From the NCBI GenBank assembly GCA_003971905.1, contig RSEE01000038.1:310001-374000 (forward strand): DNA of 64,000 nt, in the 5' to 3' direction. Below, piece after piece: positions 1 to 61,900 of the stretch (its first letter is position 1; each line of letters starts with the position of its first letter). A model generated the notes under the pieces. It was not told the origin of the DNA. It worked only from the letters and a program-made list of their open reading frames with translations, and did no database searches. The translations under genes were made by a program, and so were the position numbers. This DNA is from Moniliella sp. 'wahieum' (Eukaryota).

Positions 1-976
1 AACGAGCGAGGCAGGACAAGCGATGATCACCTTGTCGATCGTAGGCTTGTTGGGAATCGGGCTTTGACGCAACAACGTCCAAAGCAGAGCAATGCACTGC
101 AACGTTTTTCCCAGCCCCATCTCATCGGCCATAATGCACCCATACGCATTCTCCACCATCAAGCCGGTGCAGCAACGGTAAAGGAATCGTACCCCTTCCA
201 CTTGATGGGGCCGCAGAACTTTGCCCAACCTAGGTCAATGACAACAGGCACTTTGACCACTTCCTTCTTGGATTCCCTCTTGATTCCTAGGATGTCGGCC
301 AGACTCTTGTGGGGTCCTCGTTTGATTGGAACTGGGGCTGGGGGCATATTTTCCTTACTTTCTTCGCCGGCCGCTTGGGCTCGCGCATCTGCCTCGAGCC
401 TCCGCTTGGCTTCAATCGACTCACGGTCATCGGTCGTAGGGTCAAACAGAACAATGGCATGGGCGCCCATGGGATCGTGCAAAGGACGAGGCGGGATCTC
501 AATCGCGCGCCGCGTGCCAAGTGCAGCATGCGACAATCGGTTCTCAATCACCTCACCTTTCTTGTTCTTCATCACGGGCATGTGAAAGGAACGGCGGAGC
601 GCATCAGGATTGGGCTGGTACACGGGCCACTTGCGTGTGTCGGCGTTGGTCGAACGGCCGGTGGCGTCGACACCTTTGTAGCCACTGCAATCGGCGTTCT
701 TGGGATGTTCTTCTTCAGCGTCTTGGTGCCTTTTCCATCTGCCTCATCCGTCTCAGCTTCTCCGTCGTCTTCCCCATCTCCCATATTGCGATAATCGACG
801 CGCTTGCGCTTGCGTTTGCCCGGTAGATTGGCACGGGCGAGCGAGGGGGGGCGGAAGGGCTTGACTTCGAACGACGCTTCGAACCCACCGCCGTTGGCGA
901 GTCCTGAGTGGCCAGGCGAGAGCGGCGCGCCCGCGTCATCTCCCTTCAAGACGGCGGAGATAAAGCTGCGGCGCAT
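1..976 (-). CDS. RAD54: DNA repair and recombination protein Rad54 (SNF2 family), 5' part; runs off the left end of the window
   Basis: Stitched translation: [12 protein letters not shown]...KRKRKRVDY...[28 protein letters not shown]...[11 protein letters not shown]...KVPVVID(P)[58 protein letters not shown]...[10 protein letters not shown]. This is the Rad54 N-terminal domain plus SNF2 motif I. It contains several 1-bp frameshifts. Confidence 0.95.
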
Positions 977-8972: not shown

Positions 8973-9759
<787 letters not shown>

Positions 9760-10701
9760 AATGGGATTGGATTCGGAGTGCGGCGTGCTTCCTGCTCCCC
9801 CCTCTGTTCTGTGGAGGGTAGTGTACCCCTTCCTACCCCCCCCCCCCCATGTACTGATAGCCCCTTCCCCCCTCTTCCTTCCAATGTTTGTTGCTATGGA
9901 TGATCATTGGCTGGAGGATTGATAGGCTGCCCTCGGGGGGCACCGGGCTTCCCCCTTACGCTTCTCCCAACCCTTGCACACACAATGATGCACCGCAGCA
10001 GCTATCTATCTGAGCGCACCCTCACGCGCTGGTTGACACAAGGGAGAGGTGGTGCCAAGTGGGAAAAACATAAATACTGCAAAAGTGTAGAAGTGTTGGC
10101 AGTAATCGCTAAACGTTCCCGGGGGTTAGTACTTAGTAGCTTCAACTCTGCGGCCCCGCATGCGCCACTGAAGGCTGGCTGAGCGCTCTCACCTGAGCCA
10201 GTTGGAGGGTGCCTATCTCTTTCTTGGTCCAGGGGTAGGTGTCCTCCAGGGGCTACCAATCCTCGGCCGAATGCGACATAGACCCTCAACCTCGGGGCCA
10301 TCTCAAAGGGGAGGGACCTGGGGGAGCACCCAGAAGGCTTGCGCGCGCGTCCAGTCTATCTACCAAACAGCAGCAGGTGAACGATTGAAACCGAGCCCAA
10401 CATGATCACATCTGGGCACAGCCCCTTGGCGAGGAACACTGTGATGTAGACTAGGTCGTGTGCGCATGCCAGGCAGTAGGGCAGTGTGGGTGATACCCGG
10501 CGGCCTGAGCGCCTGAGCGCCAGAGGGGGGGCTGGGGGGCTGGCTGGCGGTCCAAGCGGTTTCAACGTTCAACCCCTTCTCAGCAAAAGGCGCGACAGGA
10601 CGCCACGCCAATTTGTCAAGCTTTGTTGAACGCCAGGCGCTTGAAGCTTGCCCCACCACCGTCTTCTCCACCTCTGCCACCAGCCACCTTCGATCGTCGT
10701 T

Positions 10702-11366
10702 ATGGCTGTCAAGTACGTCCTTTCTCCCTTTGTCTCCCTGCACCCTCCCATCCCTGCCCTCTCACTCGCCTTCTCCCCAGACTCGATCCGCCCTCTCAAC
10801 TGGGCTTCCCGGCCCCTTGACCCGCCTGGGCACGCAACCGTTGACCATCACCAACCCACACTCTCACCCCATCGCTTTCAAAATCAAGACGACCGCGCCC
10901 AAGCAGTACTGCGTCAAGCCCAATACTGGCTTTGTGCCTGCCGGGGGTTCGGCCGAGGTACTGATTATGCTGCAGGCCATGGCGGAGGAACCGCTGCTCA
11001 GTGCCAAGTGCCGGGACAAGTTTCTGGTACAGAGCGCGCCTGCCAGTCCCACCGCTACCAGTCTCCCTCCTACGGAATTTTGGGCGTCGGTGAACAAATC
11101 CGAGATTAGCGAGCAAAAGTTGCGCGTGGCCTACTTGCCTCCTACCTCGGCAGTGGTGCCCGAGGAAGAAGCGGAGGAGCTCCCGACGTCCCCATCCATC
11201 CCGCAGCTGCAAGCGGAGAATGCCCAGCTGCGCGCAAGCCAAGGCGTCTACCTCGCGCATGCCTCAGGTGTCCCTGCCGTTGGTTGCCCTCCTTCTCGCC
11301 CTTGTCGCGGCAGCGGCAGCGGCAGGAACGTGGTATGTGATCACCAACGACCTGATCAACTTTTAG
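10702..11366 (+). CDS. VAMP-associated protein (VAP/Scs2-like): MSP domain plus C-terminal transmembrane anchor
   Basis: MAVK, intron 10713-10780, then LTITNPHSHPIAFKIKTTAPKQYCVKPNTG (the VAP FKxKTTxP..YCVxPN signature), KCRDKFLVQS, EQKLRVAY, and the hydrophobic tail LPLVALLLALVAAAAAAGTWYVITNDLINF*. Confidence 0.92.
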
Positions 11367-13387
11367 CGTCCACGCAGCATGCCGGCAGTTTCGCTCAGCA
11401 CGGTCTTGGACTCCTAGGCTCTCCCTTTTTCCCAACTGCTCCTTCTTTGCCTCTGGCTCATTTTCTCTCTCCTCCCGTGCCCCGCACACCCGCCTCTTCT
11501 TGCATCGGCATCCTCCTTGCACAGAACGCAGAAGAGTTCGTATGACCTCATGGAATGGACCGTCCTGCCAGATCCGTCTTCCCTACGACTGGAACCGAGC
11601 TAGGGCCTGGTTCTTTTGGTGTGGCGAACTGTGCTGGGCATGAATCATGTTGTTCCACTGATTCTTCGAGGGACTTTTGCAGGGGTTCACCAGAGCGCAG
11701 TCTCGGAGGGTACATCGACCGTGCCAGCTGGGTTGGCATTGCTTAGCAACGGATCACCGGCCGTGGCCCCGTAGGTTAGATCAGGAGAACAACGGAGCAA
11801 TCTGAGGCATCGTTGTTGCCTCTCAAGATGGACGGGACGGGGGGTGACCTGAAACGGTTCCACACCAACACCAGTGAGATATCCAGCCCTTTTCAACCGT
11901 TCCCTTGGTGGTCGACTGAAGCTTGGCTTGATCTATCGCCAGGCGAGAAGGCTTGGCCGGCACCGCTGGCTTGCCATGTAGGTGTGGAAGGTGTGGATCG
12001 GGCTGCGGCGATTGTTTTTTGGAGTGACGCGTGTGGAGCTGGAGCGATGCCCTGATCCACCCGCCTATGGAGACCGCAATGGATGCTGAAGTGTATAATA
12101 GGGCAGTAGTAGCGTAGGCGATCTCTTGCGGGCGCGAGATAGGCGTTGGTGATGGCAGCAGGATGAGAGCCACAGGAGCAGACTATTAGTCGCTGGGGCT
12201 TACGTGGCTGTGCGTGCATCACCAGTTTTTGGTGCCTGCGGAGCCTCGGGGCTAGTGAGGTCGGTTAGTAGTGCTCCACGTCCAAGGGAGCCAGCCACCG
12301 CCGCCACTGCAGAGAGCCGGGATGCACTTCCACGGCGTCGCCGCCACATTGCATTTTGTTTGGGCTATACTCTTGGTCGTAAAGAATAGCTGTGGACACC
12401 GGAATGGGTAACGTGGGGGTAGCCGTGCTGGCACTCGGTTGCGGGAATGCCTGCTAAGGGATCAAGTCTTGAGGAGCTTGAGGGGACGCCTCCGTCCTCA
12501 GCCCCTGTATTACACACAAGATGTTTGTCAATAGATAGCCTCCGAGAGGCGGAGCACCGTGGCGTAGCAGCTGTCAAATCTCATCGATCTCATCGTTGGC
12601 TGATCTCGCTCCCATTTCCAATTGCTTCGTCCTGAGCGAGGCGTATGGCAGCAGCGGCGTACCCGGAGTGGCGTAGCGTGTTGCGCGTCACTAGCATCAC
12701 TTGCAGCTGAACAAGCCCGCGTGACAGCGGCATGTGACATGCGACATCACACGGACGGCCCTGTGAGTTACAACTTACGTATCTATCATCGACTAGCAGC
12801 CGCCCTGCGGCTTGCGTGGCGGTTGTCACCATGTCATATCCCCTGAGGGCGTCGAGCACCGAGTGCCGGCCTGTGCTGCGTGGGCGCTGTCAGTGACTGG
12901 GTGCTGGGCGACGGATTTGTTTACGTTTCCGCCGTTTTGAAAAGCGCGGGGCGGAACGGGGCCAGGCAGGCGGACCGCCAGCGCGGACGCTGGGCAGCCG
13001 CCGGGCGCCTGGGGCTTTGAAACTTTGGGTTGTGAGCCCGCACACTGGGCTGGGTGCAGGCCAGCCACCGTGCTGGCATCCCCCGCCGGGTCAAGCTGTG
13101 GTGCGGGGAGCCGCGGCCGCGCACTGGCGCTGTCCCGAGCCGAACGCAGCGCGGGGGCACAGGGGCACACAGCAGCCGCGCCGGCGGCCCCCGATGGGGC
13201 GGCGGGTGACGGGTGATGCGCCTGCTTTCCCATGCCTGCGCACCGCATCTGAGGTCGCATGCATGATGCAGCTCCCAGCCCTCCCTGCTCGGCCCGGCGG
13301 GGTCCGGGACGATTAAAAATCGCCGCTCCAGCCGCCGTTCCCTCTTCTCCTCCACCTCCCCTCCAACCTCCACCTCTCCTTTCTACC

Positions 13388-13707
13388 ATGTCGGCCGGCC
13401 TGCGCGCGTTCAAAAGTACTGGTACGCCCCCGAGGCGTGCCCATCTACGTCATCACCGGCGGCGCGTTTGCCGGCGATGTGGTACCTCTACGCTTGTCGC
13501 AGGGTCCGACGATTGTGTGGAACCACAAGGACAACCCCGAGCCTTGGAACAAGATTGCCCGGCACCAACACCAAGCTGCTGACGGTCAACGTACGTGTCT
13601 TCTTCTTCTTCCCTCTCCTGGGCCTTTATCTTGCCTTGCTTGTTTGACTCGGGTGCTGACCCGAACCTTGCAGCAAGAGTTTACCAAGCCAGTACAAGCG
13701 CGAGTAA
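13388..13707 (+). CDS. NDUFA4/COXFA4 (MLRQ, B12D family) small mitochondrial respiratory subunit
   Basis: Stitched: MSAGLRAF..YWYAPE.VPIYVITGGAFAG..WYLYRLSQGPTIVWNHKDNPEPWNKIA..TNTKLLTVN, intron 13591-13673, QEFTK.YKRE*. The PxxVW...NPEPWN motif is typical of the family. Confidence 0.85.
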
Positions 13708-14691
13708 AGGAGGTCAAACCTGCAGTGATCCGCTAATTCCTTTTTTGGTGGCCCGTATCGATCCGTGCTCTTTAATGGAATCCATGCTTGCCTCATGCAT
13801 CATGCTCATGTTGGTCGGTAGTTGTCTTGCGCTCATCCAAACTAGCCCCCTCCCCCCCCCACCAACCATGCATGCCCCGGCTCCCGCCCCTGCTATCCCT
13901 ACCTCCTCTCCCCGCCACGATTTCCGCTATCCTCGCTCCTCAAATCCGCGGTACACTGCATGCCCACAGCTGTCGATAGTGAGACTGTAAAAACGGGGTA
14001 GGTGGCATCTACTGTTGAGTCTAAGAAACCAAATACATCGAATGGACACAGCGGATAGCCTCCTCCTTCTATCTTGAACCAAACCAGAAGAGACGGACGA
14101 GTGGACGAGAGGAGCCAAAAAACCGAGGAAGGAAAGTAACAAGGGCGAAATACGAAAGTTGGCGCGGGGCGATCGGCCTATTCAACGACTTGGCGGGCGC
14201 ACAGAAAGTGTCGAAGATGCAGAGCGCCGTTCCTACCTGTTCCGAAAGATGGCGGGATCCAGTGACTCTGGAGGATGGCCTCACGAGGACCAAAGTCTTG
14301 GGGACTATGGGGCAAGGGAAACAAAGTCGTCGCACCTGTAGCGGACCAACGGGAGGGTGGGGGGTGTGGTCGGAAAGGCGATGGAGGAGAAGCGGTCGTT
14401 CCCAAGCGAAACCAAGAAAGAGGAAAGAGGAAAGAGGAAGAAGAAAGAAGAAAGAAGAGGAAGGAAAGAAGAAAGAGGAAAGAAAGAAGAGGAAAAGTGG
14501 AGGGCGAAACAGGTCACTCGATGCGGCGTCGTTTGGTCTCGGTCCGCTCGGCGCATTCGCTCTACCCACGCGCGCCTGGCGCCAAGGGCGACGAGACGAA
14601 CGAGACGAACGAGACGAGGTAGCTTGGGCGGAAGAGCGGTGAGAGCGAGCTGGTCCGGCACGCTCGGCCGGCGCGGCGGACAGGCTCGTCT

Positions 14692-17600
14692 CTAGTAATG
14701 CGCATCGCCACACTCGTTGCAAATTGGGTCGGCGGGCATCCACAGCCGGTCCGACAGCCGCGGCGTTCCTCCGTGTCCGCAGGCGAGTCCCGGCGTTGGC
14801 CGATTGCAGCGAGACGCAAGGGGGGATGGGCACGTCGTGCGCCTCAGAACTGTGGCGGGAAGAAGGCCGCGGTGGCTCAGGCTCGTCCCCGACCGCTCGT
14901 CCCTAGCCCGCTGGCCCTCGCCCGCTCGTCCTCGCCGCTCGTACCGCTCCGCACTGTACCGCTCAGGACCATAGCGCTCACGATCGTAACCGCTCATTAG
15001 TCGTACCGTGACGATGTACCGCGCCACTCGCGGTCGTATCGTCCGGCCATACCTCTCGCGGTCCATTCGGTCAGACTCGTATCGGCCGTGGTCGTACCGG
15101 TCGTGATCGTACCGGTCGTGGTCATACCGCGAGTGGTCGTGCCGGCCGGGGCTGTCTGTGCCGCGCGAGAAAGAGCGAGAGGGAAGGTGCCTGTCCCACT
15201 CCATACGTGAGTGGGATGAGCGTTCGCCCCATCTGCTTCGGCGTGGGCGGAAGGGTGGGGGTGTTCCGAGTCCAAGGGTGGAGGGGAGAAGGAAGTGCGG
15301 GCTTTGGGAGGGGGGTAGTCGGACGACAGGGCCCTGTTGGGAGCAGGACTTCGGCGGGGGGCTCGATGAGATGGCGGCCTGGACGTAGAGCCATTGGGCT
15401 CCACGCTCGACCGTCTGCGGGATGGCGCGGGTGCTAGTTCAGGCGAAGCGGGTCGAGGAAATGGGGCAGAGTGGTGGATAGGCGAGGGGGGCGTGGTTTC
15501 GGGGAAGGAGAGCGAATGGGCCGGACGTGGGCCGTTGATCGACGGGGGCTAGCACTTGTTGTGCCCCTTGCGTATTGGAGGAAGGGGGATGGAGAGCCGA
15601 AGGGGATGGAGTGAGAGTTGGAGCTGTTGAAGCAGGAACTGAGGCCAAAGATTTAGAAGGTGCATCAGGGGGCAGGGTCCATCTGATGCCTTGGTCGTCA
15701 GAGAACCGATCGGTAAAGAGCTGGACAAACTCGGGCCAGCTCATTTCCGAGTCCTGCTCAAATGCCTGGGTAAGCTTGGAGTACCAATGGGACGCTGGCC
15801 CAGAGGCAAAGCCGCTGAGATTGTTTGTAGCAGTTGCGCGCCAGAGAGAGATGCATGGATCGCCTGCTGTGCTTCAAGCCATTGGCCAGCATCTTCGTCG
15901 TGCGTATCGGTGGAACGACCGGTGGCGGATCCTGAGCTGGGCGGACGACAGCGGCCTGGGAACGGGGCCCACCCTCGGCAGTTGACGGCGACGCAGACTT
16001 CGACGTGGGTGCGGATTGACGAGCAGAAGGGGGTGGGAGGATAAAAGGATGGGATGACATTGAAGAGCCCGTCGTCTCCGCCGCAGTCAAGCTAGAAGAG
16101 CGTTGTTGGGAGGCAAGAACTGCTCCATGACTGTCGAACTCAACTTGCGAGCTTTGCCGCGTCGTGATCGAAGGCTCGACCTGTTGAGCCAGCTTGCTTT
16201 GTTGAACTTGCTGAGCTCGCTGAGCTGATTTGATCTCTTCAGCCAGTTTGGCCCTTCTGCCCGTCTGGCCTCTTGTGCTAGCTTGGCCTCCTGTGCGAGC
16301 TTGGCCTCCTGTGCGAGCTTGGCCTCCTGTGCGAGCTTGGCCTCCTGTGCTAGCTTGGCCTCTTGTGCCAGCTTGGCCTCTTGTGCTAGCTTGGCCTCCT
16401 GTGCTAGCTTGGCCTCCTGTGTCAGCCTAGCTTCTGCCTGCCGAAGCTCTTTCGCCAACCTGGCTTGCATACGGGCAAGACTGTCCTCTAGTGTTTGTTT
16501 CCTGCTCAGCCACGGCGGCCTCTCGTGCCTGTTCGGCTTCTCGTGCCAGTTCGGCTTGTCGTGCCCGTTCGGCTTCTCGTTCCCGCGCTAGTTTGGCATC
16601 CCGTACCAACTTGGCCTCGTGCACCAGTCGGGCCTCAAGGCCCAACCTGTCTTCGTGCGCCAACATGGCCTCTTGAGCCTGCTGCGCCTGCCGTTCCTCC
16701 AGATCGCGTAGATCCTGTTGCGTTGGGTCAACCAGTGGTTTGACCTGTTCCGTTGGGGCCGGTTGGGCCTGCTGAGCTGGTGAAGAAACCTGGGGCAGCT
16801 CGCACTTGTTTGCCTGATTTGGGTCGACTTGAATCGTGCCAGTTCGTCCTGTACCATAGTCCGTACTTCATCTCGCAAGGACGGCCGTGCCCGCTCGAGG
16901 GAAGCCTGGGTAGCTTTCTGCGCTTCCTGTTGGGAGCAACGGCTGCACTTCCTTTTCCATCTCGGTTTGGACGAGCGGGCGGAGCTCGTTGGCGAGTGCG
17001 GTGCAAACATATGGACGAATGTTCTGTTCGAGCTCGGCACGGATCACCCGATGCATCTCCTTCTCCACCTCGGTGTGCACCAAGGGCTGCACTTGTTTCT
17101 CCATCGCTGTGCGCACTTGATTTTCCAAAGGGGCACAAGCTCGGCTTTCACCTCTCCCCGAATGCGGTCCATTTCTTGGGGTACCATATCCCGTACCCAC
17201 CGCATCGCGCTCACCTGGATGGCCTTGCTCCCTCCGCTGGTCCACCCCAGTTCCTCCAGCGCGGAGGACAAGGAGGCGCGGGAGAGCAAGGTGGCTTTGA
17301 CTTCGGCCAACGCACGCATCTTGATATCGCCCTGCACTGTATTCTGGACTTGCTCCAAGGCAGTCTGTTGTGCCTGCTCCATCGCCTCGATGCGCAAGCG
17401 CCAATCGTTTTCCAGCGCTTGGATCCGTTCCTCGGTATTGGCCGACCAGGCACGTTGGTTGCGCACCTCTCCTTGTTGGACTCGGCCAGCGCATTGGTAA
17501 CGCCCAACAAGAGTTTATTGTACAACTCTTCCTTCATCCCGCGCGATTCGTCCGCCACGCGCACCACTTCCTCCCCCAACGCCAACGCCACCTGTTCGAT

Positions 17601-18005
17601 CTGGCCAAAGGCCAAGGCGATCTGCTGTGCCCACTCGGGCCCGGTCGAACGCAACTTGTGCGCCACAATGTGGTAGGCCAACCGCTTGACCTGGACCGTA
17701 GCGCGCTGGGAAAGGCCCGGGCCGTCCGGAAGCGGTTGACGGGGGGGGAGGGATATTTTCTTGTAGCGGCGAATGGGTTTCGTCCGACCACTGCCGCACC
17801 AAGTCGTTCATCGTTTTCCTCCAGTCGGAGGCGGGCGCAGGGTCGGATGCAGGCGGGGGGCTAAGCACGTCGGCGGGGCTCGAGGTGTGGAAGGCAGAAC
17901 GCCGACTCTGCCCGGACGCACTGCGGCCCATGATTCTGACGCCCAAGTCTTCGTTGTGGAGCCGCCCCAGGAGGGGTTGTCGGTTGGCAAGCCCGAGTCG
18001 CTCAT
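14692..18005 (-). CDS. Large hypothetical coiled-coil protein with (AKLAQE)n repeat, retrotransposon-Gag-like segment and RD/Y-rich tail
   Basis: Consecutive minus-strand ORF fragments (17808-18170, 17211-17681, 17044-17466, 16868-17494, 16427-16666, 16087-16470, 15439-15744, 14692-15204) join across indels. The probable start is MSDSGLPTDNPSW at 18005. The 3' end is uncertain. Confidence 0.7.
16267..16428 (-). repeat. 18-bp coding tandem repeat, about 8-9 units, encoding (AKLAQE)n
   Basis: The plus-strand unit is GGCCTC(C/T)TGTGC(G/T/C)AGCTT. Variation among the core units falls at synonymous positions of the minus-strand frame. Confidence 0.95.
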
Positions 18006-19100
18006 GGTGCGAGGGGAGAGGGGGGAGGGGACGTGCCAGATGGCCGGGCGGGGGGGGGGGTGGCGGAGGGCGTGCTGGAGGGGCGTGCGCGTGCTCAGCC
18101 GAACGCCGGGGGGCGTGAGAAACGGTGGTGGGAGTAACCGGCACAAAGGCGCGGCCGGCTGAAGCAACACCTGGGCGAGCAGAGCGAGTGCGTGTGGCTA
18201 ACCTCCAGCCAGGCTGGGGACTTAGACTTGCGCCGGAGCTTCAGGCTCTGGCTCAAGGCGAACAGTTTTCAATTTTTCTGCGCGTGCTTTTTTCGTTTCT
18301 TTCTGTTCTTTCCGCCTGGGGTTTCTTCGGTTGGCTGATTGCCTGCTTTCTGGGCTCACCTAGTCAGCAGTCCCAGTCAGCGTTCCCACACTGAGATCCC
18401 ACTGCCGCTTTTGTTCTCGCCAAGTCAGCAGCCCAATCATTAATCAGCAAGCAGCAGTCAACGCTCCACCTCAACATCAACATCAACATCAAAACACCAC
18501 TTGCCGATTCCAGCGCACCCTCCAACAAACGCCTCACGACCTCCCCATAGCATGCCCGCCATAGAGCTATTATTAGTTTAAACCGAGAGGCAGCCGCATT
18601 GCCATGTCTGCGGGACCATATAAAATGCATCATGCATACAGCAAAGGACTGGCAACGCCCGGATCTCGTGTCGGCCCCTTGCGAGCTCCAATCCCAACCC
18701 ACCGAGAAACGGAGAGTGGTGCTACCAACCAAGCAAAGAGATCGAGCCCAACAGCGGGCACCTGGCAATTGGCAACATTCGCGACCTGACAGACCGAGCC
18801 ATATGTAAACCTAGGTGAGGGAACGCCAACGGCCCAGGAGACAGGGCAAAAAAGAGGGACAAGGAAAGATAGATGGGGCGAAACGGGGTAGTCGTAAGGA
18901 AAGTAAAAGGGTAAATGGGAAAAGGTAGAGGAAACAAAAGCAAAACGAAGAGGAACAGCCAAGCGAAGAAAAAAAGAGCAAAGCAAAGCAAAGCAAACCA
19001 GACCAGACCAGCGATCCAATTTGATGCCACGCCATGGACTGATGATTGACGCTCCAACGAATGGAATTTAATCTGTGGCAAAGGTGGGATTTACGCATTA

Positions 19101-21469
19101 TTACGCCTCCGCCGTAGGTGGGAGCGGTGTGGAAGTAGGCTGGGGCGAGTCGGACGTGGGCGTAGGAGCATCAGCGTCCGACGAGGGTTTGGCCAAAATC
19201 GCCTCCACGTCCGTCGCTTGCGTCTGATCTTCCTTCAACGCACCACAATCGCATCAATCATCTTGAAGCCCAGGGACCTTGGGGGAAACAGATGAAATTG
19301 GTCACCTCGTGCGACGCACCAAACTTGGTCCGGAACGAGCCCTTGGAAGCCAAGTGGAACGTTTTGCTCAGAGCATTGTAGGCGGCAGTCACGGTGGTAA
19401 ACCGCAGGCCCACGTGCATGTTCCGACCCGGTTTCAACTCCCCGCCCGAAATGCCAAAGGAGAGCGAAGTGCACACGGGACGTTTGCTTTCGTCCCAATG
19501 GCCGACGCCTTGTCCGCCCCCTGCAGAGGAAACAAGGCAGCCGAGGACGTGTCGACGCTCGATGCGGTCGACTTGACTTGCATCGGCGTCGGCTCTGGCA
19601 CCGCGAGCACCGTCGCTTGGGGCGTGTGTGAAGGCGTTGTGTCAGAAGCTGGCGTGGCCCCTTCGGACTGCCCTCTTGCTTCCCATTCTCAGTGGCCGAA
19701 GGTTCTTCGGCTTGCTTGGCTCTGTTAAGCGTGTTGACAGGGGCCTGAACTGCAATGATTTTGCCTGGGGCCGCACTCGTACCAGCTTCGGTCACCTGCG
19801 AAGTGGAAGGACCGTTCTGTGATGGAGCCTGGGCCTGAGTTTGAGTTTGAGTTTGAGCCTGAGCTTGAGCTTGGGCTGCCTCCTGCCGAGCCTTACGGGC
19901 CCGACGAGCCTTTTCACGGTTGGACAGAGGCTTATCCTCTTCCTTTGGTTTCTTGGACGGCGTCGGCCAATCGGGCGAGCCAGCATCGCGCAACCGTTCA
20001 AGCACATGAACAATCAAGCACTCGGACGTGCCCTTGACGTCCTGGTCAAACTCCAACAGCCACTTGACCACATACTTGCCCTCCGCAATCGGTGCCAAGA
20101 CACACATCCCCACCACCTTTTCATCTTCGTGGTAGTCCAGCAACACGTTGGGCACACTCAAGTTGGACTGGCTCGTCGCCGTGCTCTTCCCCCCGTAGTG
20201 AGGTTGCCTGCACTGGCAGCGGGCTTGCCGGGTGCCCTGGCCTCCTCTTCCTCCGGAGGTGTTCGGGGCGCAACAGCGTAAAAGTACTTGCGGTGGCTCA
20301 GGTCACGCCACGGTTCCGTATCGGACGCATGGATTTGAGCCCCTTTGGCCGCCTTGGATTCTTTCCAGGTCAAGATGCCTTCTTCCACTTGTGCGCGTGT
20401 GAGGGCCGAGGAGCCATCGACAATGGGGTCAGGGAAGCGGCCATGGGCCTCAACAATCCGCAGCCCCTTGCGATGCGCCTTGCGCAACTTGGTCCGGACA
20501 AACTTCTCCGTCTGGTCCACATGGAACTGCCGCGGGTCCACCGCGTCTTCATGGATGCAGGTCAACCCGGACCAATCCAAGCTGGCACCGGCACTGAGCT
20601 TGCTAGCGCCCACCAGAGGCTCGTCCCCAATGACGTGCGGATGTGCACGGGTAAGCACATCCATAAAGTCCTCCGAGCAGCAGGACCAGAGCGGCCGCTT
20701 GCCCTCCGATTCAACCTTGTGCACCCACCGCTGTGCCACATACGCGTAGTTGTCCGGGTGGCAAAGCGGGTTGCCCCATGCAATCGCATAGGTTTGCTTG
20801 CCGTCGGGGGAATTGAGAAGATAGCCCACGTAGGCACACTTCTCAACCGGGTCTGCAACCGCATCGGCAAGTCAGTGTCAGTTCGCAATAGCAACAAGGC
20901 GTGAGATGGGGCGGGGACGTACCGTGTCGCCGTGCTGGTGGCAGGGGCAGCTCGAATATAGTGTACATCGGCTCGGTCCAGGCAGTGTTGGTGGCGGTAC
21001 CGTACAAGGGCAACAGGGAGGGCAAGAGGGGATACGGAGCAATGTTGCCCGAGCCAGGCTCGTGAAGTCGGCCATTGTTGGAGAACAAGTCGCGGAACTG
21101 GGCAGGGATTTCGGCGCCACCGGCGAGGTTGGCAGCCGAGGAGGCTTGGTTCAATGTGTTCCGGCTTCCTTCTGGATTGGTTGCGCGGGTAACGGAACTG
21201 CCCTCGGCGTCAGCCTCAGGGACAGAAGACGAGTCGGGCTCGACACTGCTGCTGAGACGGGACTGGGACGAGTGGTTGCCCAGGGGACCCGAGTGGAGGA
21301 GGGGGTGGAGCTTGTGGCGGATGGAGCCCAAGTTGCGCGAAAGGCGACTGCCGCTGAACGAGTGGCGGGGGGACCGGGGGGGAGAAGCATCAGCAGAGGC
21401 AGAGGGGCGAGAGGCGGCAAAGGACGCGCGGGGGGAGGCGAAGGAGCGGCGGGGCTGGTGCTGACTCAT
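19101..21469 (-). CDS. Free-standing DUF2156 (LPG_synthase_C) aminoacyl-tRNA transferase of the ErdS type, without an AspRS domain
   Basis: LLPLYGTATNTAWTEPMYTIF, intron 20853-20922, VGYLL...YAIAWGNPLCHP...RPLW...WSGLTCIHED...WKESKAAKGAQIHASDTEPWRDLSHRKYFYA...VKWLLEF...GTSECLI...LSFG...YNALSKTFHLASKGSFRTKFGA...ICFP..LG. These follow the motif order recalled for the ErdS C-terminal domain. The N-terminus may extend to about 21693 through a frameshift. Confidence 0.85.
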
Positions 21470-21559
21470 GCGGCGGGCGACAGGCGACGCATTGCGGGTG
21501 GGACCCGTGCTGGGTTGCTGCTTGTCGGCGGTCTGGGCTTGTGGCGGGGATTGTTGCTG

Positions 21560-21645
21560 GGGCTGGGACTGGGGCTGGGCCGAAGACTTGGACTGGGGCT
21601 GGGGCGAAGACTTGGACTGGGTCTGGGACGAAGGCTTGGACTGGG
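21560..21645. repeat. 24-bp tandem repeat (about 3 units) at the 5' end of the DUF2156 gene
   Basis: CGAAGACTTGGACTGGGGCTGGGG-like units; on the minus strand they could encode PSPSLRPS. Confidence 0.8.
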
Positions 21646-23797
21646 AGGGAGTGTGGCTGTGGGGAGCGCGCGCGTACGAATGGCATCGAGCATGGCCGGG
21701 GGGCTGGCACGCGAGAGAGGCGGTGGTGGTGGTGGCAGCAAGCGCAGCAGAGAAGCGGCGGCTGAGGCTGAGCGCTGTGTAATTAATAGCTTGTGGAGGG
21801 GGCGGGGCACTGGGCTAGTGCGGCGCAGGCACTGGCTGGGCTGCTGCGGGGGAGCTCGGATGTTCAAATCATCAATCTCACATGCTGGTGTTCGTGCATG
21901 CGGCATGCATGCAGCCATGCTTAGCGCTTCTTCATGCCTAAGGCCTAAGGCTTAGGCCTAAGGCTTAGGCCGAATGCTAATGCCTGTCCAAGCTCCCAGC
22001 CGCCACCGCATGTGTCACATGTCACATGTCACATGTCACACCCATCCCACTGCCACAGCCGGCCGCGGGCAGCCCACGCATGCCTAGCATGACTCGACGC
22101 ATGACTCGACGCATGACTCGACCGCCTGCCTGCGCCTGCCGCAGCTGGCCACGCCGTCTCTCGGGAGCCTGGCAGGACGCCTCAGATGCTCTCGATCCTC
22201 AGGTCTCACGCCCAGCAGCCCCGCGCGTAGGGCAGACTGCGGCGCACCAGCACGCACCCATGCGCCTACGCCCCTTGGCGCTGCTGTTCGCAGCCGCCGC
22301 AGTCAGGCGCCCGTGATGCGCTCATAGCCCCGCACGGGGGCAGCCGTGCGCCACCCGGTGCGCTCCGCCCGCTTCCCGCTCCCGGCTTCCGACTGCCTCG
22401 GAGACGCGCGCACGCCTCCGAAACACGCACCAGCACCAATTCTATCCGCAGGCAGCACTACGCTGCAGAATCTCAGACGCATTACGTACATTGTCATGCC
22501 CAGCTGCTGCAGGCTGCTGCCCCCGTGCGGCCCGCCAGACCCTGGCTCGGGCCAGTCGACCGGCTAACTCCGCGCAGGCCCGAGCAATTTGCAAGCTGGA
22601 TCACCGGTTAGTGCCCCGCCACGCCAGCCACCGAAAGGCCATCATGCATCATGCAGCATGCATCAGCGTCGTGCATAGCCTCTGCCCCTGTGCCGGAGCA
22701 GGCGAGAGCAGCTCGAGTGCACTGATCGGGCGGGGCGAGGCACAAGTGGAGGCCGCAGCGCCCAGCAGCGCCACCACCAGCCGGCATTGCCTCGCCGAAG
22801 ATGCGAGTAGCTGGTGACCGGCCCAATAGCCACGTCCATACGTCCAGATTCCATGCATCATGTATCACCCACCACCGGTCACCGTCACCGGTGGTCCGCG
22901 GCGTCCAGCCGACGAGTGCCAGCCAGTTTCCTTCCAGCACCCAGCCCTGGCTCGATTGGAATGTGGATCCAGCTTGCTTTTAACCTGGGCAACGGGCACT
23001 TCTTGCCGCTGCCGCCGCCAGCCTTGAAGCACACCGACCTCAGTGACTCCGTGGGGTCGACACTCCAGCGTCTAGTGGCGAATCGACTGTAAGATCTAAG
23101 ACCCGAGGAACCCAAGCAACGGTGGAAAAACTCTGGAAGAGATGCAGATCAGTGCAATCGCGCTGGCGGTTGCTTAGGTGGTTAGGTCTAAGCCTTCTGC
23201 CACACCTGGAAGAAACAGGGGTTCGAACAAGCCAGTGGAGTATACACGTTGAGACCTCGGAGAGGCCAAATAAGGGGCAATGGGTGAAGGCCCAATAAGG
23301 CGCCTACTCGGGTCCCACCATCGACAGATCAATTTAGTTGGATCGTACTCCCCATTCCCGTACATATTCTTTTTGGGCGCCGCGGATCAGCACACGAAAC
23401 TAACACTTTGCCAGAACGTCCAGCAGGATCGCAGCCGCCGCTGTGCCCATTTCCCTAAACCGGCCATGTTGGTCTAAGATACTAGCAGGACACCTTGCCG
23501 GCCTCCAAAGACGGAATCCAAGGCCCCATAATACATCACCAGCACGAAGCGATACTAACAACACTGGCAGCTTGGCCGGACCCGACCACACGATGTTCTG
23601 TCGCGTCCGGTTGACCCAAATCGGGGAACCTGTGAAACGCCTCCATGCTTCACCTTTCACCTTTCACGTTCACCCTTCACGCCTTCTTATGTACTCCCCG
23701 CCGCAAGTTCGCCAAGCGCCACTTGCCCCACTGTGCTCTCCGAGTCACATTTCCGCAGCGTAATCCATTCATACATGACCGCTGGGCCCAAGGACAG

Positions 23798-39875: not shown

Positions 39876-42250
39876 TTAGGCCCAAAGGAAGGTGACCCAC
39901 TTCTTCCACGCCCGTTGTGGCGGTTCGGGGGGTTCTGGGTTGTCCACATATTGGATAAGCCAAGGCCGGATGGGCACCTCTGCCAAGGGAGTCCAGTCCC
40001 ATCCGCTCCAAATGACCTGGTATCCAACTAACAGAACCAAATCGAAAAGCGGGCAAGCATAGGCCGAAACCAACGTTTCCGCATTGAAATGGTGCGGGAT
40101 GAAGATGGAGTAGCCACCAGTTACAAGGAAGAGAGGCAGCCCCCCAGGCCAAACCAGGCAGCGTAGGGTTGTCCCCACGTGGCCCAGGGCAGCTCGGAAC
40201 GGGGGATGCCTTGGGCACGCATGCCATAGTACACTTGCAAGCAATTGATGTTGATCACGCCCCATGTCCAGAGGATGCCAGACGAGCTAAACGATACGGC
40301 CCACTGGAACACTTTTTCGGCGTCTCGGTAACAGACATGTAGGACAACGCGATCCACATACAGACAAACAGCACCGCCACGTACGGCACCCCCCCACCGG
40401 TGTACCCGAAGGAAAATCTCAGGCGCGTTTCCATCTTGAGCGAGGCAGATGAGGCTGCGCGAGCCATTGAGAATCAACGAATCGGCGGCAGACCAGGCCG
40501 AGATGAGGATACCAGCGTTGATAACCGATTCCAATCCTTTCCACCGGCCCGATGGGCGGCCACCACAAAGGGAGAACGCGAAGTGATGTAAGGATCGTTG
40601 GATGCAACCACCAGGCCGACCATAAAACAGATACTGAGATAACAGCAGAAAATCCGTACAAACACCCGTTTGGTTGCCTTCATCATGCCCCGCCTCGGTG
40701 TGGCTGTCTCGGCCACGAGCAAGGAAATGGCTTCGCAATTTGCATACGAGTAAAACTGGCGATCGTAGCGCTCCAGTAGCCGGTAAACCGACCTGCGGCT
40801 CCACGTACAAGATATTCAGCTGTGGGGCCTGGGTCGTGCCAAAAGTGAAAGCCGAGGCGGGCCGGAACCCGCACCGAGGTCAATACGAGACAGACGATGA
40901 TAATGCCAACGACCATGATGAGTTTGAGGAGGGCAAAGTAGAACTCGGTTTCGGCCCAGGCACGTACGACTAGACAGAGTTAAGACAGAGTTAGCACGAC
41001 ACATTCCCGCGTGCCAATGGGGGAAAGTTTGCATACCGATAATGTTGGTCGCCACAATGGCTACACCGAGGATGGTGACAAAGATAGCAGGGCTAAGGTT
41101 GGTCCAATACTGGATGAGAACGGCACAGCTCGTCACCTCGCCCGCACAAGCAATCGCATTGTAGATCACCAGGTTCCAGCCCGTAGCGAATCCCAAACTT
41201 GCAGAGCTAAACACGGAAGAGTGGCGGGCGTAAGCGCCTGTAACCGGGGCCAAGGTGGTGACCTCACCCAAGGAGAGCATGGTGGCTGCCACAACGGTGC
41301 CCGAGGTGAGATATGCGAGTATGAGTAAAAGGGGGCCACACCAGGATAATGTCCTTCCCAGGTTCAGCCACACCCAACCCCGATCGTCCCAGTCAAGGCG
41401 ATCATTTGGACACTTAACGAACAAATCAAGGGTCAGGTCATTTGCTAGGGGATATCATCATGGGAGATGGGGGGTAATCGGCAAGGAGAGTAAGGGGGGA
41501 TACAGGACGGGAAAGGAGAGACGTACTGTCGTTGCCGGATGCCGGCCCGGAGACCATCGTCCCGGAAGAATTTGGTGCGTGTAGGCGAATCAACACGGGT
41601 AAGGTCACCATAATCTTTCTTTGGCCCGGCATAGCGGTCCACACTATCTTCCCAAGCATCGCCAAGAGGAGGGGCAGAGGAGGAGGAAGGTTCAGCTTCA
41701 GGTTGGTCTCGCTCGGGATCCAAAGGGGGCGACATGGCGCTGTGCAGCTTGGCTGGGGTGAGCCACGCAGCACCTTCGCCATTGACGGAGGGCTTGTCGG
41801 ACTCGGTGTAATTTGGGGGCTCGATGATCATGGACAACGACTTGCCCCGGGAGGCATTGGTTGGACTGCGCCACATGTTGGGCATATCAAACTCCTGGTG
41901 CTCTGGGATGTCGTCAAATCCGGTAGGACTCTTTCGTAGTCATGGGGGGATAGACCGGGGTGGGGGCTTTGGCCGGGCACACCGGACGCGGGAGATGCAT
42001 CCACATATCGTTCCGTTGTGACGGTCACGGGCGAGAGGATGGCGGTGGAGGGGTCAGGATGGGCGGGTTGGGCACCAAGCTGGAGATATTCGGAATCTTC
42101 AAGGTTCTCTTCGGAGGGCCCGAGGGTTGGATCGTGGAGCGGGCCTTGGAGCACAGCGAGTGGGAAGGCGCCCTGGAACGGGGCGGGCGGGGTGCTAAAG
42201 TCGGCCGCCGCATCCCGGCTGCGGCGGCGGAAACGGGGAAGCGAGGGCAT
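39876..42250 (-). CDS. Amino-acid permease (APC superfamily, yeast amino-acid transporter type) with a long disordered N-terminus
   Basis: GPLLLILAY...MLSLGEVTTLAPVTGAYARH...LGFATGWN...LIQYW, intron about 40970-41035, ETEFYFALLKLI, GFHFWHDPGP, LVAETATPRR...KATKRVFVRIF, SPFVVAA, SRSLICLAQDGNAP, YYGMRAQGIPRSELPW..WGQPYAAW. Confidence 0.92.
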
Positions 42251-45856: not shown

Positions 45857-47168
45857 ATGAGTTCATCAAATGTCAAACTCACCGTCCTTCAAACGGCTGT
45901 GGCCGATGCATTGAGCGGTGTGCTGGCCAGTGCCGCCGTCTTCCCCCTCGACACGATCAAGACTCGGATTCAGGCTGATCCGAGCAAGACGCATTACGAT
46001 CACGGAGACCTGTATGCAGCCGATGGCACCCCTCGCAAGCGCCGACTTTCGTTCGGTGACGGCCAGGTGGCTGGATGGATGCGTGGGCGGATACCTTTGT
46101 TCCATGGGCTGCTGATTCACCTTTCCCATGGCCAGATCCTGGGTTTGTACAAGGGGTTCTCAGCTACAATGGTTAGCACTTTCTTTATGCGTATGTATTT
46201 TCCCCACCCCACACTCACCTCCGTTTTCTGCGCTGACCACAACTTGTTGAATTGGAACACGGGCAACAGAGCTGTGTTACTTTTACTGGTACACGCTCTT
46301 GCGCACCCAGTATGTGCGGCGGCTCCTCCGCCGTTCTCCTTCCGGTGCCCATCTGTCGACCTTAACGGAACTGGGGATTGGCACGGTGGCGGGGCAATGG
46401 CGCAACTTATCATTCTGCATGCACGCCATGCACCTTATTGCCACCAACAGCAATTGGCCTCAACTCGCTCGGCCCCATCCACGACGGCACCTCCGGAGGA
46501 GAAACCCAGAATGAGCGTTGATAATGGAACCGATCCGCTTACAACCGACAAGACCGAGCAATCGCCCACGCCCTCTCCGACTTTACCTTCTCCTGCTCCT
46601 GACCATAGCGTTATCGGGATTGCCAAACAGATTTACCAAGACCATGGCCTGACCGGTTTTTTACTCTGGCCTCAAGCCGACGATGCTCCTATGTCTCAAC
46701 CCGGGCCTGACATATGGGCTGTTCAACCGTGCGTCTTTCCCACATAACCTTCTTTTAACACTTCCTTCTCCGTATACTAACCTCCATCTCACACCAGGAA
46801 TGAAGGAAGCCCTTCTGAAAGTAACAGGGAAAAGGGCACCACGCCTCTCCAAACATTTGGATTAGGCGCAGCTTCCAAAACCGTGGCAACGGTGGTGACC
46901 TTCCCACTGATCCTCGCAAAGCTGCGCTTGCAGGCGCGGGAAGCATCCTCATCCGGGGTCGTACGAGCATGTGGGCATCCTACGGAAGTGGTTAGCGGGC
47001 CAAGGGGTGCGAGGTGCCTACCATGGCTTGGACTCGCACATCATCAAGACCGTGTTGAGTCAGGCTTTGCTTTTTGTTGCTAAGGATACGTTCGAGGCGG
47101 TGGCCTTGATGATCATTCTCTTTGGGCGCAGGGGTTGGCGGCTTGATGCAACGTCCTGCTCGCAGTAG
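45857..47168 (+). CDS. Mitochondrial carrier family protein, most similar in pattern to the peroxisomal adenine nucleotide transporter (Ant1-like)
   Basis: Carrier signature FPLDTIKTRIQA in repeat 1, GLYKGFSATMVSTF, LCLNPGLTYGLF, ATVVTFPLILAKLRLQA, GAYHGLDSHIIKTVLSQALLFVAKD. Introns lie at about 46191-46269 and about 46729-46797. Confidence 0.85.
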
Positions 47169-58959: not shown

Positions 58960-61900
58960 TTATCGATCCTTTATATTATAGCTCAGAGGGCCCACCAAAG
59001 TGCATGGGGCACGGAGGTGCGGGTGGGTTAGAGAGTATATGATTGATGCATCTCTATGGATCCGAACATGTACGACCGAGTGCAACAAGTCACCAGCGTC
59101 AGCGTTGCTGGTGACCAGGCCTGTGCGGATCCGATGGGCCCAGAGTATCCTCACTGTTGCCCACGTCCATGGCTGAAACCCAATCATCATCCGGGTCGGG
59201 GGCAGAGGTCGAGGCCGAGCCGGTGAGTGAGGCGCGGGGTTATCATGCGGCGAGGCCTCGTCGTCGTCGTCGTCATCGTCATCGTCATTGTGGGCGGTAT
59301 CTTGGGTTTGCCACATCTGGTATGCCGAAGAAGAAAGGCCGGGTCCATCTTGGAGCGGAACGTGCACCGTGTCGCCATCATGAGCAGAATCAGCGTCCAA
59401 CGCCGTCAGGCCGTAGAGATGTTCAGCCGAAAGTTGGCCAAAGTTGGACAATCCCATCTCGTGAGAGTGGTCCTCATCGCTCTCGTGGGGTGATGGCGGG
59501 CGGTGCGGACCCCCATCAGCAGGGCCCAAGACAAGCGCCCGACGCGGCGGTTCATCCTCTTTCGCATCCGCCTCCTGACGTGAACACATCGGCGCAGTTC
59601 CCACCAAATGAGGTAAGGCAAGCGCCACCACCTGCCGTACTTGTTGACTCTTGTCCTGCGCCAACGATTGACACAGCATCGTCAGTTCTTCAGGCCTGCC
59701 TTCGGGAGCAGGGTAGTAGAACGAGTCCACTCCGCACAGCTGGGCCATCACACGAGCGAGGCTGATCCGCACATCCACCACTTTGTCTTCCCTGCCCATT
59801 CGCAAGAGACGAGGCAAGAAAATGGAGGTGACCAGGGAGGCAGGCAAATGAGCTTCCAGCAAGGCTTGCAACGCAGAGAGGAACGAAAGACGATGCCGGT
59901 ATCGCTCTGAGTCAGCCATATCGCTGACCATGCCCAAAAAGCCATCGGCCAAAACGGGATCGCTCTCGTTGAACGTATTGTAAAGCACCGGTACCGCACG
60001 AGCGCCAACTGTGCGCACCGAGGCTACCGAATCTGATAGAGCCAGTTGGGTAAGGGCAACCAAGTTGCCCTCCTCGTCGGATAGAAGGAACTTGGGGGCC
60101 AAAGCGGGCACCAGCTCCGCCAATCGTTCCCTCACCCGCCAGTCGCGAGCGAAGACACCCGTCCAAGCTTCCTTGAGGAGACGGAGTTTGGCCTCGGCGT
60201 CTGCCGAAGGGGCGTGGATCAAGAGTTGGTCCACGTGTTCGATCGCGGCCGAGCGTACCTCAGCATCGTCCCACAGTACAAACATGTCGAATAAGGGTAA
60301 TAGGTCCTTCCCGGTATTCTCCGAGCCAATGATCTTGGCCAGCTCGTGGAGTGATGCGGCCAAAGAGCGACGGGCCTTGATGTTGGCATCTTGGGCCAGC
60401 TCGGCATGCATACGGCACAAATCGGGCCAGGCAGCCTTGCCCAGTGTGAGAACGACGGCAGGGAAGTTAAAAGCGCAGACCAAAGGCCGTTCCAGGCTGA
60501 GTGCAGCCGCATTCAGGTCCCATCCCTCGTCCATGGTGAACGCATTGGCCATCGTGCCCGCATCCATGGGTTCATCATCGCCCGGACTACCAATGGGGGG
60601 CGCCGGATCAGGGGTCTCGAGATCAAAGGGTTCCCCCTTGAAGTACCGAACCAGCTCAGGCGGCGGTCCATCAGGCGTGTCATGGAAAAGGTAGATGAGC
60701 TCGCCCATAACCTCCAGGACGGTGGAACGAACTTGGCGCGAGACGTCTTGAGACAGAGAACGAAGCGATGCGACGACCTTGGTTCTTCTTACCTCCAGGT
60801 CCCTCACCTGAGCAAACAGAGTAGGTATGGCGAGACATGCGCCTTGGCGGACATGCCAAATACCGTCGTGCTGGAGGAGATCAAAGGTCTCCAGCAAGAC
60901 CTGCTCAATGTGGGACCGGCAACGTTCCGCTTCGGACCCCGAAACTTGCTCCTGCGTCGTGGAGCTAGGCTTGGGCACGACAGGTTCGCCCAGAGCCTTG
61001 GCTACTGCCGAAACGAGCAGGGCAACCTCCTTGCGGACAAAATACGCTGGGTCGGTCCTCAATCGGACAATCTCAGGAACGATGAGTGTCTCAAGCGAGT
61101 GGAGGCTGAAAATTTTGGCGCTTACCAGCGCGCTCAACAGACTCACGGACGACATGCGCCCCACCGTCGCTTCAGTGTTGGTGTCAATCACAACCTCGGA
61201 CATGTGGTCCGAATCGGCCTCATCCATCACTTGATCATGGAGGGATGAAACACCGCCAAGTGAGATGGGGGCACTCGCCTCGCCCTCTTCCAGTTGGGAA
61301 TCCACCTTGTCCGCCTCGTCCTGCTGCCCATCTTGGAGGGGAGACTCAATGTCCATTGCATCTTCCTCAGCCTCCGCATCGGCGTGAGGAGACATATCCA
61401 CATCCTCCTGGGCACCCACGTCCGATTCCAAGTTCGATCCTTGGAGTGGAGTACGTGCAGGCAAAGCCGGGGCCGCCCTCTCTTGCTGGTGCGTTGCACC
61501 TTGCTGCTCCGCCGTGACAGGCAAGTCAACGTACCTTGGCATCTCCCAAGACCCAGGCAAGGGTCCTTCGGGCCCATCGAATCCACTTGACGCATCCGCG
61601 TCTGCATGAAGACGGCCAATCGCAAATACCACGTTCTCCATCAACTCGTCCTCAATCGCTTGACGGGCAGTGCGGCCAAACTCGTACGTCTCTGCTTGGA
61701 TTGGGTCCCCTTCGCGGTCCAAAAGCGAGGTAACCAAATCGGCATCGTCTGTCACAGCGCAGGAGGCCATGTCAAGCGCATCTAGGTGGGGAGGGTGTCC
61801 TGTCCGAGGCGGGACCGCCAGGCTTGTATGCGGGCAGGAGGGGCTCCTCTTCGGCCCCTTCTTCCCCCGATGCGGAGCGCAGCGGGGAAAGTGCCGAGCC

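Follow-up and report, generated by a model that had tools for sequence, protein, structure and literature searches.

Introduction

In animals, host genes derived from retrotransposon capsids (Arc, PEG10, PNMA, RTL8, and SCAN) have received much attention as an origin of new functions in the cell. Here, we describe a gene in a 64-kb stretch of contig RSEE01000038.1 (hereafter the window; 64,000 nucleotides of a probably fungal, GC-rich genome), whose product contains a small conserved four-helix domain that may be most like one half of a retrotransposon capsid and may represent a rare piece of a mobile element kept by its host. Single capsid lobes have been kept before. SCAN is a C-terminal lobe that dimerizes via domain swap, and it is said to have been identified as a homologue of the capsid C-terminal domain by Ivanov and colleagues in 2005. 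As found in vertebrate zinc-finger proteins, it shows that one capsid lobe can be retained as an interaction domain in a larger host protein, in the portion of PMC10516033 available to us. The domain described here would instead be an N-terminal lobe (N-lobe).

The most similar described cases are the mammalian RTL/SIRH 'half-capsid' genes LDOC1 and RTL8, which have kept only the N-lobe of a Ty3/gypsy-type capsid beside single helices and disorder (PMC10516033, in excerpt). According to the available part of PMC11684626, capsid shells consist of N-lobe rings joined through contacts between C-terminal lobes (C-lobes), and RTL8 alone forms no particles, binds the N-lobe of PEG10, and lowers particle release. 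As far as these excerpts describe the mammalian pair, the window gene resembles them in having one lobe with no C-lobe or zinc knuckle, flanked by helices and disorder. The mammalian genes differ in being small (113 amino acids for RTL8) and in having clear Gag sequence homology, whereas the lobe of the window gene is an internal island, ~650 to 700 residues into a protein of ~1,100 amino acids, in a probably fungal genome and with homology below threshold. The window case would be a capture independent of the mammalian half-capsid genes, outside animals.

Arc and dArc1 carry a coiled-coil N-terminal domain directly before a two-lobed capsid domain, an arrangement that the window gene does not have. 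An initial annotation of the locus had likened its layout loosely to that of Arc. This holds insofar as long helices are predicted upstream; however, the helical region is much longer than in Arc or dArc1, more than 200 disordered low-complexity residues precede the lobe, and the lobe is single. Arc-like capsid assembly is not expected, since there is no C-lobe. Sequence searches of the PDB detected no relation to Arc or dArc1. Note that the Arc N-lobe has been crystallized with a stargazin peptide (title of entry 4x3h, the part of that source available to us). Compared with the capsid N-terminal domain (CA-NTD) of Ty3/gypsy Gag (PF03732, PF19259; PDB 6r22), the window sequence scores under the cut-off and matches only a part of the profile; it lacks all other parts of Gag, as well as pol and long terminal repeats (LTRs).

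Among fungi, the available excerpt of a eukaryote-wide survey counts only three co-opted gag genes, and it places nine Ty3/gypsy-derived genes in animals and plants only (PMC8321522). The fungal genes, Crtg12-14, derive from Ty1/Copia in two cases and from Bel-Pao in one (Wang and Han 2021, PMC8321522). They are single-copy fungal host genes from LTR-retrotransposon gag, as the window gene may be; their described Copia or Bel-Pao origin sets them apart from it. In the parts of the literature available to us, we found no report of a fungal host domain derived from Ty3/gypsy, which is not proof that none exists.

Results

A conserved island shared with an intact relative

The sequence that the initial annotation had read as Gag capsid is present as written, in two minus-strand frames inside the interval 15690 to 15920 first assigned to it (Table 1). 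The first frame, at 15804-15926 (-), reads ATGRSTDTHDEDAGQWLEAQQAIHASLSGAQLLQTISAALP, and the second, at 15664-15801 (-), reads GPASHWYSKLTQAFEQDSEMSWPEFVQLFTDRFSDDQGIRWTLPPD. The last codon of frame 1 is the P of ALP (15806-15804) and the first codon of frame 2 is the G of GPASHW (15801-15799). Because the two-base gap between them (15803-15802) and one further base would make exactly one codon, a single base appears to be missing.

With HMMER, we found a relative in which the segment lies uninterrupted within a single open frame. Using the 52-amino acid second piece as query against 1.84 billion representative proteins, we obtained five matches at an expectation value (E) of 0.001 or lower. 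One of these, P0004, is a protein of 1148 amino acids in a single open frame, matching query positions 8-49 with 52% identity (E 8.7e-5). The other four (P0001, P0002, P0003, and P0005) were internally repetitive, matched in 6-12 stretches, and were judged spurious by eye. No retrotransposon Gag was returned at this cut-off, as expected given a query of 52 amino acids. P0004 is itself a singleton, located on one assembled contig of 7,258 bases. It reads ...DDAREWLHLQEKALTIFPPAVRLKAVVQALPHVTASQWAAKLYQAFEQEDSELTWDDFTQLFLERFAEETSVKWPL across the segment, and the spacing over the position of the break is equal in the two proteins: ALP, then three residues, then AS[QH]W (ALP-HVT-ASQW in P0004). Because P0004 holds the segment in a single frame with equal spacing, the original joining of the two window frames across one indel was right.

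Outside the segment, the two proteins are collinear. Comparison of P0004 with the window by tblastn gave five collinear blocks (Table 1), of which the three N-terminal ones (P0004 23-305) have a joint E of 2.8e-25, and NTEERIQALENDW is identical in both proteins. The gag-like block is the best conserved, with 52% identity over 42 amino acids versus 30-36% in the N-terminal blocks. The segment lies near residue 700 in the window protein and residue 646 in P0004, and the architecture is shared. The linkers and tails could not be aligned by tblastn; in P0004, residues 306-645 and 722-1148 are rich in P, S, T, and A, with few hydrophobic residues.

P0004 is the one relative of matching gene architecture that we found. 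Word-index protein searches with the gag piece and with the N-terminal piece gave no match at E<=0.01, and a search with P0004 60-740 returned P0004 alone. Two metagenome scans revealed no further relative; one was empty, and the other gave only a contig pulled in by W[DP][DE]F[TV]QLF (L001). The product of its reading frame at 158-907 (+) is an integrase of phage type (Phage_integrase E 1.6e-12; SAM-like N-domain E 4.5e-7), and we rejected it as a chance match.

Resemblance to the capsid N-terminal lobe

Three kinds of comparison name the same family. Against 24,736 Pfam models, the second window piece matched Retrotrans_gag (E 0.0017, 19.0 bits, profile positions 6-43 of 97), the sole match at E<=0.01 among 10 frame pieces. 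Taken alone, this sequence match is suggestive and not significant. The corresponding part of P0004 (residues 636-725) matched Ty3_capsid (E 0.035, 14.0 bits, profile positions 59-92 of 198) and Retrotrans_gag (E 0.078, 13.7 bits, profile positions 10-43 of 97), and these were the only families at E<=10. In the ESM Atlas (7.7 million clusters), 24 of the 30 clusters nearest to the window piece belonged to the Retrotrans_gag set, with top scores of 0.92, 0.91, and 0.89. The P0004 segment was placed near clusters named 'Retrotransposon gag' and others with DUF7041, Retrotrans_gag, or DUF4939 (scores of 0.89-0.92), some of which are mainly basidiomycete.

A structure model was made from P0004 636-725, the intact relative standing in for the window segment. 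AlphaFold predicted four helices (H10-24, H29-39, H43-58, and H65-78), with a predicted local distance difference test score (pLDDT) of 67.4 and a predicted template modelling score (pTM) of 0.58. We compared this model with 48,161 PDB representative chains using VIA-align. The top match was the Arc N-lobe (4x3h_A; Z 6.5), with a root mean square deviation of 3.1 and 67 residues aligned over the 79-residue chain at 19% identity. The PNMA2 capsid (rank 2, 6.4), human Arc 212-280 (rank 4, 6.3), the Copia capsid (rank 6, 5.8), PNMA2 again (rank 8, 5.7), dArc1 (rank 9, 5.7), and the Ty3 CA-NTD 6r22 (rank 10, 5.6, 20% identity) followed. Retroelement capsid lobes made up 7 of the top 10 and 16 of the 50 matches listed. 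Since the model can be aligned along the full Arc N-lobe, we take the island to be probably one complete lobe and no fragment. The conserved [IV][RK]W[TP]L after helix 4 has a pLDDT of 48 in the last model block; to judge from the model, it could either belong to the domain or act as a folded-back ligand.

No C-lobe was recognized downstream in either protein. Judged from sequence, Pfam coverage ends at profile position 43 of 97, and what follows is rich in P and S and low in hydrophobic residues. The initial proposal of a half-capsid, that is, of one lobe only, is consistent with both observations.

Retroelement hallmarks

The gene has none of the other retroelement features that we looked for, as the initial annotation had indicated for the knuckle, pol, and LTRs. 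No CCHC knuckle (regular expression C-x2-C-x3-5-H-x3-5-C) occurs in P0004, and the one match in the minus-strand frames of 14400-18100 spans a stop codon. There were no LTR-like direct repeats of 40 nucleotides (nt) or more in 9000-23000 except for an internal array of 18-nt units. Families of reverse transcriptase (RVT), integrase (rve), RNase H, and gag were absent by Pfam from 150 scanned open reading frames (ORFs) of at least 100 amino acids (of 257; those 150 lie in 1-48 kb) and from 46 scanned ORFs of at least 180 amino acids (of 71 listed). No second copy was found in the 64-kb window (tblastn with both pieces; next best E 0.09). Together with collinearity to P0004, these results agree with the earlier view of a host-like gene and no ordinary retroelement.

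Gene layout and neighbourhood

Along the protein, a region of long helices is followed by a disordered linker, the folded island (~80 amino acids), and a long charged tail that is likewise disordered (Table 1). AlphaFold, given P0004 60-420 and, as additional alignment rows, the pieces from the window, predicted helices H152-206 and H211-339 (mean pLDDT 62, pTM 0.26), which fits the term 'coiled-coil-type' at the level of the model. The context first described for the segment, long helices before it and a P/S-rich and then R/D/Y/H-rich tail after it, is thus reproduced. No Pfam family matched the N-terminal region at E<=1 except weak coiled-coil-type noise.

Table 1. Coordinates of the gene, its parts, its matches to P0004, and the broken neighbouring genes in the window. 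ORF, open reading frame; GC3, G+C content at third codon positions.
Feature	Coordinates	Strand	Details
Whole gene	14562..18004	-	~1,100 codons; at least 11 frame changes; based on ORF list, GC3 frame plot, and collinearity with 1148-aa (amino acid) P0004
N-terminal conserved region	17134..17946	-	three frame pieces (LGVRIMGRS..., VQVKRL...PEW..., AWSANTEERIQALENDW...); predicted long helices
tblastn block, P0004 23-83			30% identity
tblastn block, P0004 92-187			33% identity
tblastn block, P0004 215-305			36% identity
Tandem repeat	16266..16421	-	18-nt unit, 8.7 copies; encodes (EAKLAQ)n within helical region
Full conserved small domain, putative capsid N-lobe	15673..15926	-	four predicted helices and conserved [IV][RK]W[TP]L directly after
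Gag-like segment (DTHDED...RFSD)	15697..15908	-	two frames; matches P0004 646-713
tblastn block, P0004 646-676	15896-15804	-	32% identity
Frame-break site inside domain	15802..15803	-	two bases between frames; ctctgggcc context
tblastn block, P0004 680-721	15795-15673	-	52% identity over 42 aa
Low-complexity tail	14880..15660	-	P/S-rich, then R/D/Y/H-rich repeats (RYDHDRYDHDRYDHGRY..., SGYDRERYGPERYSAERYERRGR); at least 3 frames
Rad54_N (Rad54)	1-862	-	break 698/695
Arf GTPase	9271-9656	+	break 9450/9447; profile 16-75 then 75-144
AA_permease (amino-acid permease)	40133-41370	-	breaks 40749/40752 and 40537/40543
Mito_carr (mitochondrial carrier)	46841-47099	+	break 46957/46968

The ATG at 18004 (-) is the first of the conserved region, and the 3' end of the gene lies between 14562 and ~14900. 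At 14560-14610 (-), a short reading ...RRPWRQARVGRA loosely resembles the C terminus of P0004 (...LRPWWGKRRRVA), a place where tblastn reported no match; a stop at 14562-14564, in a neighbouring frame to this reading, may mark the true 3' end. The R/D/Y/H-rich part of the tail occupies 14880-15150 (-) and is spread over several frames; the repeats of the tail include a 15-nt unit at 15077-15148 and a 14-nt unit at 14881-14942. The tail of P0004 is likewise disordered and charged, with KKPNKEPN repeats. A purine-rich microsatellite (GAAAGAG / 14-nt unit, ~6-12 copies) occupies 14414-14495, just downstream of the likely gene end. Upstream of the island, the (EAKLAQ)n array is near-perfect (94% matches). 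Because tblastn found no counterpart in P0004, the array would be a recent expansion or a length-variable part of the protein.

The neighbours identified by Pfam in the window are Rad54, FMN reductase, Arf, a VAP-like MSP protein, B12D/MLRQ, RabGAP, a CAP-Gly protein, a C2H2 finger protein, a permease, a mitochondrial carrier, and a HEAT-repeat protein. Such a set of genes, along with a 55-nt gap the size of an intron in the permease gene, is what a fungus could be expected to have. The B12D / MLRQ gene (complex I subunit-like; Pfam E 2.3e-8) at 13317-13733 (+) adjoins the 3' end of the gene studied here and is a possible synteny anchor.

Discussion

From these results we infer that the island, on balance, probably descends from Gag. 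Our preferred explanation of the locus as a whole, a cellular gene with a captured Ty3/gypsy-type capsid N-lobe kept under constraint, asks for slightly more and is held with a shade less assurance. A number of observations weigh against this reading, and several of them favour a lineage-specific small helical domain without Gag ancestry, in which the W..L / W..F..LF..RF motif and the four-helix packing would be convergent or due to chance. No Pfam score reaches its curated cut-off (19.0 and 13.7 versus 24.1 for Retrotrans_gag; 14.0 versus 29.1 for Ty3_capsid), leaving the domain outside formal membership of PF03732 and PF19259 at the gathering cut-off, and with P0004 as a whole, no gag family is matched at E<=1. 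Searches of PDB sequences (phmmer with the piece, and a three-row profile) returned no capsid protein and one unrelated weak match each (E 0.93 and 0.84), and Foldseek at E<=0.001 returned nothing from the PDB (best E 2.1) or BFVD (best E 1.4). The lobe model rests on a three-row alignment with a pLDDT of 67, and helical domains of a clamp loader (1iqp, 6.4) and of Dus (1vhn, 6.0) tie in Z with the capsid matches. Shared-feature counts in the Atlas were 159-160 of 256, below the 170 typical for same-family matches. In addition, P0004 has lost or never had the G of L-x-G-x-A-x-x-W, and W-D-D-F-x-Q-L-F also occurs by chance in the N-terminal domain of a phage integrase, which shows that motifs of this kind turn up repeatedly among helical domains. 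It may also be that Pfam, the Atlas, and AlphaFold all respond to the W..L / W..F..LF..RF motif, so that their signals are not independent; nor are the matches of the window protein and P0004, which are relatives and are two sequences in all. Furthermore, the segment was chosen for its resemblance across a very large scan, so chance look-alikes are expected. Despite this, we regard an origin without Gag as unlikely, although it deserves serious consideration. Pfam, the Atlas, and the PDB chains are large search spaces, and all three kinds of method name one family. N-lobe chains came first in both VIA-align runs, with the highest identity (19-22% versus 4-15% for most other rows), and generic four-helix bundles scored clearly lower. 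The capsid pattern of the initial annotation is therefore upheld in part: Retrotrans_gag and Ty3_capsid are named in both proteins, the Atlas neighbours are gag clusters, and the four-helix model has the Arc N-lobe as its top VIA-align match, but the family scores remain below cut-off and neither Foldseek nor the PDB sequence searches recovered a capsid. The same holds for the proposal of a fungal gene with a co-opted half-capsid domain, where the host-like gene, the single lobe, and its place as the best-conserved block stand more firmly than the Gag assignment.

The frame breaks raise two further possibilities. In the window gene, there are at least 11 frame changes in ~3.1 kb (~1 per 270 bp); coding sense resumes in each new frame, and no piece contains an in-frame stop. 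Similar breaks affect conserved neighbours (Table 1). These were located by converting Pfam-matched stretches to DNA coordinates, and they appear as adjoining profile segments that switch frame without intervening DNA. A junction in AA_permease at 40967-41023 (-), with a 55-nt gap and profile position 135 followed by 132, is unlike the others and probably a short intron. The locus is rich in G/C runs. Homopolymer runs of C and G, one of which directly precedes the start codon (~18040-18060, -), reach 12-13 bases in the window, and such runs are likely hot spots for length errors. Because the Arf, permease, carrier, and Rad54 genes are broken likewise, the assembly appears to carry frequent single-base errors, and the breaks in the gene studied here most likely stem from the assembly being unpolished rather than from gene decay. 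A lobe that is genuine in the family but sits in a dead window copy, its breaks being real mutations, has a slim chance. It would account for a break density about twice that of the neighbours (roughly 1 per 450-650 bp in four genes, and none in the 3-kb ORF at 58960-61977), yet all disruptions are single frame changes without nonsense codons, of the type that the conserved neighbours share, in a locus rich in G/C runs. Still less probable, to the point of being very improbable, is an ordinary retroelement relic, a decaying and functionless gag fragment in or beside the gene by accident. Although the many breaks and the survival of the N-lobe alone are what such a relic would leave, the segment is the best-conserved block between proteins that are otherwise 30-36% identical or unalignable, at an equal place in an equal architecture. 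P0004 is open throughout its 1148 amino acids, the conserved neighbour genes carry like breaks, and in the window, LTR-like repeats were absent from the scanned range, pol domains from the scanned ORFs, and a second copy from the tblastn results. Note that single-base indels seem frequent in this genome, so that ORF-based reading of it needs care.

Under our preferred explanation, the cellular gene, found once in the window, would encode a protein of ~1,100 amino acids with a long-helix N-terminal region, disordered linkers, a charged low-complexity tail, and one folded island. This island would most likely be a retrotransposon capsid N-lobe of Ty3/gypsy type, with the fold of the Arc N-lobe and the Ty3 CA-NTD. 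Its capture would predate the divergence of the two known carriers, and the lobe would then have been kept under constraint in a gene that apparently lacks the C-terminal capsid lobe, the nucleocapsid knuckle, pol, and LTRs. Because shells need N-lobe rings tied by C-lobe contacts, a lone N-lobe should be unable to build one. By analogy with known lone or isolated N-lobes, which act as binding modules, we read the island as a probable protein-protein contact module, working by short-peptide binding as in the Arc N-lobe or by N-lobe pairing. The long helices would multimerize the protein and present several copies of the lobe, and the disordered arms would tether the lobe and let it reach its partners. 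A more specific role, to which we give quite a small chance, is that of a host decoy against Ty3/gypsy elements: by analogy with the action of RTL8 on PEG10, the lone N-lobe would co-assemble with incoming Gag N-lobes and poison or sequester growing particles. In this role, the long helices and the disordered arms would link several lobes to one another.

Should Gag ancestry fail, the finding reduces to a short conserved domain within an orphan protein and is of modest interest. If it is true, however, a single N-lobe can become a fixed, internal module within a large scaffold protein, and such fixation occurred outside animals and plants. Half-capsid genes would then be a recurrent outcome and not a mammalian peculiarity. 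The window protein offers a concrete case in which to ask whether a lone lobe binds peptides or interferes with capsids. If the decoy role is true, the gene would encode a capsid-derived restriction factor of new architecture, and the first reported Ty3/gypsy-derived host domain in a probably fungal lineage.

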